This document shows positions 13,242 through 20,840 of a stretch of DNA of 30,752 bases, one piece after another. Below the pieces are notes generated by a model. It did not search any database, had not been told where the DNA came from, and worked only from the letters and a program-made list of their open reading frames with translations. Each line of letters opens with the position of its first letter. Position 1 is the first letter of the stretch. The DNA is from Escherichia coli (GTDB taxonomy: Bacteria > Pseudomonadota > Gammaproteobacteria > Enterobacterales > Enterobacteriaceae). The DNA lies in assembly GCF_003334315.1 (NCBI RefSeq), contig NZ_QOWR01000055.1. One strand, 5' to 3'. A program made the position numbers and the translations under genes.

Positions 13242-13487
13242 ATGCGCATTACTATTTACACTCGTAACGATTGCGTTCAGTGCCACGCCACCAAACGGGC
13301 GATGGAAAACCGGGGCTTTGATTTTGAAATGATTAATGTCGATCGCGTTCCTGAAGCGGCAGAAGCGTTGCGTGCTCAGGGCTTTCGTCAGTTGCCGGTA
13401 GTGATTGCTGGCGATCTTAGCTGGTCTGGTTTCCGTCCGGACATGATTAACCGTCTGCATCCAGCGCCACACGCGGCCAGTGCATGA
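13242..13487 (+). CDS. nrdH: Glutaredoxin-like protein NrdH
   Basis: 81-aa ORF with redox motif CVQC ([18 protein letters not shown]...). Confidence 0.95.
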
Positions 13488-13891
13488 GCCAGCTCGTCTA
13501 CTTCTCCAGCAGCTCCGAAAACACGCAGCGTTTTATCGAACGTTTAGGTCTGCCCGCGGTGCGCATCCCGCTCAATGAGCGGGAACGGATTCAGGTAGAC
13601 GAGCCTTACATCCTGATCGTGCCCTCTTACGGCGGCGGTACGGCTGGCGCGGTGCCACGACAGGTAATTCGCTTTTTAAACGACGAGCACAACCGGGCGT
13701 TGCTTCGCGGCGTTATTGCTTCTGGTAATCGCAACTTTGGTGAGGCGTATGGCCGCGCCGGAGATGTGATTGCCCGGAAATGCGGCGTGCCGTGGCTGTA
13801 CCGTTTTGAACTCATGGGTACGCAAAGCGATATCGAAAACGTTCGTAAAGGAGTAACCGAATTTTGGCAACGACAACCGCAGAATGCCTGA
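13484..13891 (+). CDS. nrdI: Flavodoxin-like protein NrdI
   Basis: 135-aa ORF; start ATG overlaps nrdH stop (ATGA at 13484..13487). Confidence 0.93.
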
Positions 13892-16008
13892 CGCAGGAAA
13901 CGATGGATTACCACGCGCTGAATGCGATGCTTAACCTCTACGATAGCGCAGGTCGCATTCAGTTCGATAAAGACCGCCAGGCCGTTGACGCCTTTATTGC
14001 GACGCATGTGCCTCCGAACAGTGTGACCTTCAGTAGCCAGCAGCAGCGCCTGAACTGGCTGGTCAACGAAGGTTACTATGATGAAAGCGTTCTTAATCGC
14101 TACTCTCGCGACTTTGTCATTACGCTGTTTGCCCACGCACACACCAGCGGTTTTCGTTTCCAGACATTCCTCGGGGCATGGAAGTTTTACACCAGCTATA
14201 CGTTGAAGACATTCGACGGTAAACGTTATCTGGAAGATTTTGCCGATCGAGTAACGATGGTGGCGCTGACGCTGGCACAAGGCGATGAGACGCTGGCGTT
14301 GCAACTGACCGATGAAATGCTGTCAGGACGCTTTCAGCCAGCCACGCCAACATTCCTCAACTGCGGTAAGCAGCAGCGCGGCGAACTGGTTTCCTGTTTT
14401 TTGCTGCGTATTGAAGACAATATGGAGTCGATTGGTCGGGCGGTAAATTCCGCACTGCAGCTGTCGAAACGCGGCGGCGGCGTAGCATTTTTGCTGTCGA
14501 ATCTGCGAGAAGCGGGCGCGCCAATTAAACGTATTGAAAATCAATCTTCTGGCGTAATTCCGGTGATGAAAATGCTGGAAGACGCATTTTCCTATGCCAA
14601 CCAACTCGGCGCTCGTCAGGGGGCTGGTGCAGTCTATTTACATGCTCATCATCCCGATATTCTGCGTTTTCTCGACACGAAACGGGAAAATGCCGACGAA
14701 AAAATCCGCATTAAAACACTGTCGCTTGGCGTGGTGATCCCGGATATCACTTTCCATCTGGCAAAAGAGAATGCGCAGATGGCGCTGTTTTCGCCTTATG
14801 ACGTAGAGCGAGTTTATGGCAAGCCGTTTGCCGATGTGGCCATCAGCCAACACTATGACGAACTGGTTGCCGATGAACGCATTCGCAAAAAATACCTCAA
14901 CGCCCGTGATTTCTTCCAGCGACTGGCAGAAATCCAGTTTGAGTCCGGCTATCCCTACATCATGTATGAAGACACGGTAAACCGTGCTAACCCTATCGCC
15001 GGGCGCATAAATATGAGTAATCTCTGCTCAGAAATTTTGCAGGTTAACAGCGCCTCAGAGTATGACGAGAATCTCGACTATACCCGCACAGGCCATGATA
15101 TTTCCTGCAATTTAGGTTCGTTGAATATTGCGCACACCATGGATTCCCCCGATTTTGCCCGCACGGTAGAGACTGCCGTGCGCGGTTTAACGGCAGTATC
15201 AGATATGAGTCATATCCGCAGCGTGCCGTCCATCGAAGCCGGAAATGCCGCCTCGCACGCCATCGGACTGGGGCAGATGAATTTACACGGCTATCTGGCG
15301 CGAGAAGGCATCGCTTATGGTTCGCCGGAAGCACTGGATTTCACCAATCTCTATTTCTATGCCATCACCTGGCATGCACTGCGTACCTCGATGTTGCTGG
15401 CACGCGAACGCGGTGAAACCTTCGCCGGGTTCAAACAGTCACGCTATGCCAGTGGTGAATATTTTAGCCAATATCTGCAAGGGAACTGGCAGCCGAAAAC
15501 GGCGAAAGTTGGCGAACTGTTTACCCGTAGCGGTATTACGTTACCTACCCGTGAGATGTGGGCGCAGCTGCGCGACGACGTGATGCGCTACGGCATATAC
15601 AACCAGAATCTTCAGGCGGTGCCGCCAACCGGTTCTATCTCTTATATCAACCATGCTACGTCGAGTATTCATCCGATTGTGGCGAAAGTAGAGATACGCA
15701 AAGAGGGCAAAACAGGACGCGTTTACTACCCTGCCCCGTTTATGACTAACGAGAATCTGGCGCTGTATCAGGACGCTTACGAAATTGGCGCAGAAAAGAT
15801 CATCGACACCTACGCGGAAGCGACTCGCCATGTCGATCAGGGGCTGTCGCTGACGCTTTTTTTCCCCGATACCGCCACCACTCGCGATATCAACAAAGCG
15901 CAGATTTACGCCTGGCGCAAGGGTATCAAAACGCTCTATTACATCCGCCTGCGTCAGATGGCGCTGGAAGGCACTGAAATTGAAGGCTGCGTCTCCTGTG
16001 CACTTTAA
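13864..16008 (+). CDS. nrdE: Class Ib ribonucleoside-diphosphate reductase alpha subunit
   Basis: 714-aa ORF, ribonucleotide reductase large subunit with C-terminal CxxC-type tail (CVSCAL); overlaps nrdI by 28 nt. Confidence 0.96.
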
Positions 16009-16977
<969 letters not shown>

Positions 16978-17235
16978 GGGTGTTATTTTCAAAAATATCA
17001 CTACCCGCAGCAGGGAAATAATTCCCGCCAAATAGCTTTTTATCACGCAAATAATTTGTGGTGATCTACACTGATACTCTGTTGCATTATTCGCCTGAAA
17101 CCACAATATTCAGGCGTTTTTTCGCTATCTTTGACAAAAAATATCAACTTTCTCGATTTGCTCTCAGCCCTTATATCACGGGAAATTCCGGCGATTTGCT
17201 CGCATCAATATTCATGCCACATTTGCCATCAGGGG

Positions 17236-17263
17236 TTGCCTCAGATTCTCAGTATGTTAGGGT
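17236..17263 (+). promoter_or_regulatory. proU sigma-70 promoter (-35 TTGCCT, 16-bp spacer, -10 TAGGGT)
   Basis: TTGCCT at 17236..17241 and TAGGGT at 17258..17263 read directly; matches the osmoregulated proU promoter architecture known from E. coli/Salmonella. Confidence 0.6.
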
Positions 17264-17330
17264 AGAAAAAAGTGACTATTTCCATTGGGTAATATATCGA
17301 CATAGACAAATAAAGGAATCTTTCTATTGC

Positions 17331-18533
17331 ATGGCAATTAAATTAGAAATTAAAAATCTTTATAAAATATTTGGCGAGCATCCACAGCGAGCGTTCAAAT
17401 ATATCGAACAAGGACTTTCAAAAGAACAAATTCTGGAAAAAACTGGGCTATCGCTTGGCGTAAAAGACGCCAGTCTGGCCATTGAAGAAGGCGAGATATT
17501 TGTCATCATGGGATTATCCGGCTCGGGTAAATCCACAATGGTACGCCTTCTCAATCGCCTGATTGAACCCACCCGCGGGCAAGTGCTGATTGATGGTGTG
17601 GATATTGCCAAAATATCCGACGCCGAACTCCGTGAGGTGCGCAGAAAAAAGATTGCGATGGTCTTCCAGTCCTTTGCCTTAATGCCGCATATGACCGTGC
17701 TGGACAATACTGCGTTCGGTATGGAATTGGCCGGAATTAATGCCGAAGAACGCCGGGAAAAAGCCCTTGATGCACTGCGTCAGGTCGGGCTGGAAAATTA
17801 TGCCCACAGCTACCCGGATGAACTCTCTGGCGGGATGCGTCAACGTGTGGGATTAGCCCGCGCGTTAGCGATTAATCCGGATATATTATTAATGGACGAA
17901 GCCTTCTCGGCGCTCGATCCATTAATTCGCACCGAGATGCAGGATGAGCTGGTAAAATTACAGGCGAAACATCAGCGCACCATTGTCTTTATTTCCCACG
18001 ATCTTGATGAAGCCATGCGTATTGGCGACCGAATTGCCATTATGCAAAATGGTGAAGTGGTACAGGTCGGCACACCGGATGAAATTCTCAATAATCCGGC
18101 GAATGATTATGTCCGTACCTTCTTCCGTGGCGTTGATATTAGTCAGGTATTCAGTGCGAAAGATATTGCCCGCCGGACACCGAATGGCTTAATTCGTAAA
18201 ACCCCTGGCTTCGGCCCACGTTCGGCACTGAAATTATTGCAGGATGAAGATCGCGAATATGGCTACGTTATCGAACGCGGTAATAAGTTTGTCGGCGCAG
18301 TCTCCATCGATTCGCTTAAAACCGCGTTAACGCAGCAGCAAGGTCTTGATGCGGCGCTGATTGATGCGCCGTTAGCAGTCGATGCACAAACGCCTCTTAG
18401 CGAGTTGCTCTCTCATGTCGGACAGGCACCCTGTGCGGTGCCCGTGGTCGACGAGGACCAACAGTATGTCGGCATCATTTCGAAAGGAATGCTGCTGCGC
18501 GCTTTAGATCGTGAGGGGGTAAATAATGGCTGA
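17331..18533 (+). CDS. proV: Glycine betaine/proline ABC transporter ATP-binding subunit ProV
   Basis: ORF 17058..18533; internal ATG at 17331 ([19 protein letters not shown]...) gives the 400-aa protein. Walker [13 protein letters not shown] signature LSGGMRQR, C-terminal CBS domains. Confidence 0.95.
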
Positions 18534-20640: not shown

Positions 20641-20650
20641 TTTTTATTCG

Positions 20651-20840
20651 GGCGGATAAGGCGTTTTTACCTCATCCGCCGCTCTGTACACAATGCCTGA
20701 TGCGACGCTGGAGCGTCTTATCATGCCTACAAAATACACTCATTCCGTATGGCGGATAAGGCGTTTTCGCCGCATCCGTCGTTCTGTGCACAATGCCTGA
20801 TGCGACGCTGGCGCGTCTTATCATGCCTACAAACCACATC
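20651..20840. repeat. Two tandem about 100-bp BIME/REP units downstream of proX
   Basis: Unit 1 starts at 20651 and unit 2 at 20751 (ggcggataaggcgtttt...gcacaatgcctgatgcgacgctggngcgtcttatcatgcctacaaa), near-identical with a few substitutions; contain REP-like palindromic cores. Confidence 0.7.

Follow-up and report, generated by a model that had tools for sequence, protein, structure and literature searches.

The window analysed here is a 30,752-nucleotide stretch of Escherichia coli DNA (RefSeq assembly GCF_003334315.1, contig NZ_QOWR01000055.1), which carries the nrdHIEF operon on the plus strand. According to the list of open reading frames and the RefSeq annotation of near-identical strains, the operon begins with nrdH (13242..13487), which codes for a glutaredoxin-like protein. 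It is followed by nrdI (13484..13891, stop codon TGA at 13889-13891), encoding the class Ib RNR assembly flavoprotein (135 aa), by nrdE (13864..16008), encoding the class Ib RNR alpha subunit (714 aa), and by nrdF (16018..16977), encoding the beta subunit. The ORFs starting at 13242, 13484, 13864 and 16018 lie on a single strand in the order nrdH-nrdI-nrdE-nrdF that characterizes a class Ib RNR operon. nrdH and nrdI share 4 nt (ATGA), and the nrdE stop codon is separated from nrdF by 9 nt. In profile searches, NrdI matched the equivalog model TIGR00333 with 203.3 bits (cutoff 74.65) over residues 5-130, and NrdE matched the class-Ib model TIGR04170 with 1263 bits (cutoff 750) over residues 15-714. 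Salmonella NrdE in the PDB (1PEM) has 714 residues, begins with MATTT and aligns end to end with NrdE of the window; its sequence starts at the position equivalent to TTG 13864. The nrdI-nrdE region is present in 5,422 of 5,426 complete E. coli genomes, and RefSeq/PGAP gives the identical nrdE start and the same 28-nt nrdI/nrdE overlap in every E. coli record opened. Genes, gene order and nrdE start are those of the annotated nrdHIEF operons of E. coli and Salmonella, from which nothing material differs.

NrdE of the window differs from that of the best-matching strain by a few substitutions. Its codon 50 (14011-14013) encodes Pro, whereas Arg was found in the other E. coli genomes examined; the residue differs widely among 80 species (N, R, L, Q, I and others), with Pro in the window only. 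The Gly-rich loop of NrdI (window 13630-13641) reads SYGGGTAG in a protein of 135 aa, compared to SYGGGGTAG and 136 aa in K-12-type strains. The same 135-aa NrdI occurs in strain 2013C-3342 (WP_001565743.1), and GGG versus GGGG also differs between species, so that the loop shortened by one Gly is probably neutral as judged from these sequences. Pro50 and the shorter loop were checked as variants specific to the window; both positions vary between species and were set aside as unremarkable. In E. coli O157:H7 ECP19-2498, nrdE is annotated with 2142 nt (713 aa) versus 2145 nt in other strains; the one missing codon lies outside the junction, in which the single change is Glu12Lys. The annotation of E. 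coli P276M (NZ_CP044293.1) lists alaE, ygaM, nrdH, nrdI and nrdE as pseudogenes, either frameshifted or partial, which in this one genome looks like poor consensus quality of the assembly and not like real decay. Elsewhere in the window (20650-20827, 27425-27496 and 30410-30752), Rfam matched two REP-type naRNA4 copies that follow the proVWX operon, the sRNA MicA, situated between luxS and gshA, and tRNA genes at the end of the window, which RefSeq annotates as tRNA-Arg. In the ORF list proV extends over 17058-18533 from GTG 17058 (491 aa), compared to a RefSeq start equivalent to ~17332 (400 aa); the extension is an artefact of the list, in which the first start after a stop was taken.

The nrdI/nrdE overlap and the nrdE start codon

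The first-pass annotation of the window, made from the sequence, had described a 28-nt out-of-frame overlap between nrdI and nrdE at 13864..13891, and both coordinates and arithmetic are right. The nrdE frame runs one base behind the nrdI frame (-1), and the dual-coding stretch covers NrdI residues 128-135 with the stop codon and, in the nrdE frame, residues 1-9 and the initial base of codon 10. The overlap had been called longer than others nearby, and this holds as well: nrdH/nrdI and yqaA/yqaB share 4 nt each, proV/proW 8 nt and ygaZ/ygaH 11 nt, all as in RefSeq (comparison strain 99.9% identical across the 717-nt query), and the 28 nt of nrdI/nrdE are the longest overlap in the window. Nevertheless, a length of 28 nt is statistically ordinary and needs no special explanation. 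With this frame relation, 71% of the positions inside nrdE are followed by a stop-free run of 28 nt or more, and according to a 2025 review the overlap is below 30 bp in more than 80% of the prokaryotic gene pairs that overlap (PMC12548453).

The nrdE start had been placed correctly at 13864, but it had been missed that the codon is TTG (UUG in the mRNA; 13864..13866) and not ATG; the initial M of NrdE is therefore an initiator Met decoded from UUG. In the nrdE frame, TTG 13864 is the first possible canonical start after the in-frame TAA at 13846..13848, with none in between. In the nrdI frame it is made of the last base of Phe127 (TTT) and the first two bases of Trp128 (TGG), the two codons occupying 13862..13867. 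This location of the TTG within the conserved Phe-Trp codons of NrdI, which had likewise gone unnoticed, is what actually explains the geometry of the junction. The Shine-Dalgarno (SD) sequence AAGGAG (13848..13853) lies 10 nt before the TTG and is made of the NrdI codons Lys122-Gly123-Val124 (AAA GGA GTA). UUG is a weak start codon, and a spacing of 10 nt between SD and start is longer than optimal. At -8.2 kcal/mol, the predicted anti-SD duplex of TTG 13864 is stronger than that of any other start in the operon and ranks among the top 1.2% of operon positions. As long as NrdI has Phe-Trp at this position, the nrdE-frame codon is limited to TTG or CTG; thus, the weak start is set by dual coding.

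Directly before the TTG and in the same frame, 7 nt from the SD, lies an invariant ATT (13861-13863), and AUU is known as a very rare bacterial start codon. ATT 13861-13863 is a very unlikely alternative start of nrdE on sequence grounds; species comparison does not separate it from TTG, because the Glu-Phe-Trp codons of NrdI fix both.

On the NrdE side, the overlap lies in an N-terminal tail (residues 1-14, 13864..13905), as delimited by the start of the TIGR04170 profile and by comparison with relatives. The first-pass annotation had considered an in-frame Met in this region, at 13906, as a possible true start. The ATG in question (MDYHALN) is located at 13903-13905 and encodes Met14; it is preceded by AGGA (13895-13898) with a 4-nt spacer, and the anti-SD duplex predicted there amounts to -4.3 kcal/mol. 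Comparison of the two ribosome-binding sites thus speaks against the downstream Met.

Conservation of the junction across species

We compared nrdI-nrdE junctions from 80 species representatives in public genomes; the query was the part of NrdE that follows Met14, in order not to favour the extension. The Met14 codon corresponds to a non-start codon in the majority of these species (CCG, CCC, GCG, CTG, CTC, CAG and others), and in one genome labelled Escherichia coli to AGG. Consequently, NrdE of those species must begin upstream, and the proposed mis-set start of nrdE does not stand up to orthologue alignment. The AGG allele at codon 14 was absent from the complete E. coli genomes, in which the best match reached 97.8%.

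By contrast to codon 14, the TTG is conserved. Of the 80 species, 68 have it at the homologous position, and TTT-TGG is present in 68 of the 74 species that have Phe-Trp in NrdI. In each of the 68 TTT-TGG species, the nrdE frame can be read without a stop from the TTG to the conserved DYHALN. The sequence GGAG-T-N9-TTG-GCA-ACG-ACA is almost invariant in Enterobacteriaceae, Erwiniaceae, Yersiniaceae and Salinicola, and it is still recognisable in Cellulomonas, Dietzia and Nocardia. The tail between TTG and the NrdE core falls into 13 length classes of 11-37 codons, and it is always in frame and free of stops; every indel in it must therefore be a multiple of three. TTC-TGG occurs in five Enterobacterales species (three Photorhabdus, Providencia and Morganella), all of which have a distinct ATG located at the nrdI stop or just behind it. 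Related genera show a 4-nt overlap or spacers of 2-15 nt and an ATG of their own. In Brevibacterium and Mycobacterium, the homologous position encodes Leu-Cys or Thr-Cys in NrdI and carries a GTG. In Mycolicibacterium chubuense, TTT-TGG lies ~90 nt upstream of the DYHALN codons with TTG in the nrdE frame, and TTT is used in 0 of 42 other Phe codons; the Gly codon of the SD is GGC, and a GTG further downstream has its own GAAGGA.

The length of the overlap is not conserved. In the relatives it amounts to 7, 13, 19, 22, 25, 28, 31, 34, 37, 46 or 52 nt; 31 of 67 have 28 nt. It varies because the nrdI frame past Trp128 runs on until it meets a stop, which in this strain follows 8 codons after Trp128 and results in 28 nt. 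The conserved element is therefore the position of the nrdE start inside the C-terminal motif of NrdI, and the overlap length is incidental. Phe127 and Trp128 are covered by the last positions of the TIGR00333 profile; as this profile ends at residue 130, NrdI extends past the family core by just five residues. The NrdE residues in the overlap are part of a variable tail, since the family-wide core starts at Asp15 (start of TIGR04170 at residue 15). This explains why dual coding is tolerated.

Selection on the start codon and Shine-Dalgarno sequence

Codon choice in nrdI at the junction departs from that in the remainder of the genes. TTT is kept at the start-site Phe codon in genomes of 59-67% GC, compared to 0-10 of ~40 Phe codons elsewhere. 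High-GC genomes with 0-5 TTT in ~40 such codons keep it as well: none of the 43 other Phe codons in Cellulomonas and none of the 39 in Dietzia is TTT, and two Salinicola species and two Nocardia use it in 1-2 of ~42. Likewise, 62 of 68 species encode Gly123 within the SD by the rare GGA, a codon that makes up 7.7% of the Gly codons elsewhere in the same genes, although probabilities calculated from such codon usage overstate independence, the species being phylogenetically related. Third positions of nrdI codons at the start and the SD have low entropy, while neighbouring third positions are near saturation. Dual coding forces the rare TTT and GGA even in genomes of 60-67% GC. The sites concerned are synonymous for NrdI, and this pattern indicates that the ribosome-binding site of nrdE is selected at the nucleotide level. 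As far as comparison of genomes can tell, the C-terminal motif (Lys/Glu)-Gly-(Val/Leu)-x-x-Phe-Trp of NrdI doubles as the nrdE ribosome-binding site, and this dual coding has travelled with the operon through Gammaproteobacteria and into Actinobacteria.

Discussion

In this study, we observed that the overlap of nrdI and nrdE is genuine, conserved and already annotated, and that it represents ordinary gene packing and no annotation error. The position of the start site, its SD sequence, the maintained frame and the selection at the nucleotide level were established here for the junction. We consider it very probable that nrdE is translated from UUG 13864 inside the 3' end of nrdI, with a ribosome-binding site written in the conserved C-terminal codons of NrdI. 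In this arrangement, AAA-GGA-G of the NrdI motif Lys-Gly-Val-x-Glu-Phe-Trp supplies the SD AAGGAG, and the last base of TTT together with the first two bases of TGG supplies the start codon. Ribosomes might bind this SD-UUG de novo, or they might reach it from the nrdI UGA 25 nt downstream, moving back after termination. This would loosely tie the synthesis of NrdE to the translation of nrdI.

Two alternatives involve the downstream ATG. If the start were mis-annotated, NrdE would be made from ATG 13903, with an 11-nt spacer and no overlap with nrdI. ATG is a stronger start codon than TTG, AGGA is located 4 nt upstream of it, the family profile TIGR04170 begins only at residue 15, and the ATG is retained in E. 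coli, E. albertii and the Salmonella protein. Yet most of the 80 species, among them an Escherichia genome with AGG, have a non-start codon at this position, the first four codons of the upstream segment are conserved and its frame is kept through all 13 spacer-length classes, the SD and the TTG are selected against codon bias, and the SD of the ATG is the weaker of the two (-4.3 versus -8.2 kcal/mol). An over-extended start of nrdE is therefore highly improbable. Potentially, both codons might be used in Escherichia and Salmonella, with initiation mostly at TTG 13864 and a minor isoform of 701 aa from ATG 13903, in line with the purine-rich element upstream of both sites and with an ATG 13903 that appears fixed in complete E. 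coli genomes. On the other hand, most relatives lack the ATG, and such an isoform would therefore be lineage-specific and dispensable, while Met as an ordinary residue of a variable tail needs no further explanation. We also found no experimental hint at a second product, and dual initiation appears improbable. For translation from UUG 13864, the preferred explanation, a search of the accessible literature likewise revealed no direct mapping of the NrdE N-terminus or of initiating ribosomes; nrdE is not mentioned in the E. coli initiation-site ribosome-profiling supplements searched, and full-text literature on the nrdE start codon, TTG, Edman data and the overlap contained nothing relevant.

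A further question is how initiation at UUG 13864 relates to the translation of nrdI. The common ATGA or TGATG coupling overlaps, such as that of nrdH/nrdI, resemble the nrdI/nrdE junction in that the genes are co-directional, out of frame and in one operon, with the start near the upstream stop. However, the nrdE start lies 25 nt upstream of the nrdI stop without shared bases, nrdE has a strong SD of its own and a UUG, and the nrdI stop drifts between species. A similar geometry is found in the coat-lysis junctions of RNA phages, in which the start is located tens of nt upstream of the stop in another frame and termination-dependent back-initiation was shown (fr at -38 nt, MS2 at -50 nt; PMC12548453). 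The stop/start spacing of -28 nt at nrdE falls within this range of demonstrated coupling. The lysis start of the phages is weak or masked and strictly dependent on coat termination, whereas nrdE has a strong, conserved SD and no masking structure: the predicted minimum free energy around the nrdE start is -22 kcal/mol versus a shuffle mean of -22.7 kcal/mol (z = 0.24). An Rfam scan of the whole window also returned nothing at the nrdI/nrdE junction. With no more structure than in shuffled sequence and no Rfam family there, a mechanism that unmasks the start is not needed. Tight coupling of nrdI and nrdE, the other reading offered in the first-pass annotation, is plausible from the anatomy of the junction, with which it is compatible, but given its strong, selected SD nrdE could equally well initiate independently; the strong SD and the absent masking make independent initiation likely.

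Coupling could also be obligate, with nrdE translated only by ribosomes that terminate at the nrdI UGA and move back ~25 nt, so that the overlap would enforce a fixed NrdI:NrdE ratio. The phage precedents agree with this, as does the finding that 68 of the 80 species have the nrdE start inside the nrdI 3' end, and the weak UUG would gain from a high local concentration of ribosomes. Coupling efficiency generally drops with distance (PMC12548453), however, and the stop position is not conserved, with overlaps from 7 to 52 nt. Moreover, related genera manage with a 4-nt overlap or 2-15 nt spacers and their own ATG, the site is not masked by RNA structure, and a strong SD under nucleotide-level selection favours SD-dependent recruitment. 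Since the stop position drifts and the SD is strong, obligate coupling is the less likely option, and we regard it as rather unlikely. Finally, the -1 relation of the two frames and a T-run (AATTTTGG) at the junction would suit a programmed -1 frameshift in the overlap that yields a NrdI-NrdE fusion protein. The nrdI frame (GAA TTT TGG CAA) contains no slippery heptamer of the type X XXY YYZ, there is neither a downstream stimulatory structure nor an Rfam match at the junction, and the TAA at 13846 in the nrdE frame together with the arrangement of SD and start fully account for the conservation. The frameshift fusion was therefore rejected, its probability being practically negligible.

In summary, the annotated NrdE of 714 aa and its TTG start are correct; no re-annotation is required, and the overlap should not be flagged as suspicious. 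By locking nrdE on the weak UUG, dual coding might provide a built-in setting of the NrdI:NrdE translation ratio and not merely reflect a frozen accident, but we can suggest this only tentatively and any regulatory consequence is speculation. A single exchange, T13864C, would split the two layers: the nrdE start TTG would become CTG, whereas TTT to TTC leaves Phe127 of NrdI unchanged. The junction offers a clean natural case of a conserved protein motif that contains a ribosome-binding site, and codon bias points to selection on both layers.
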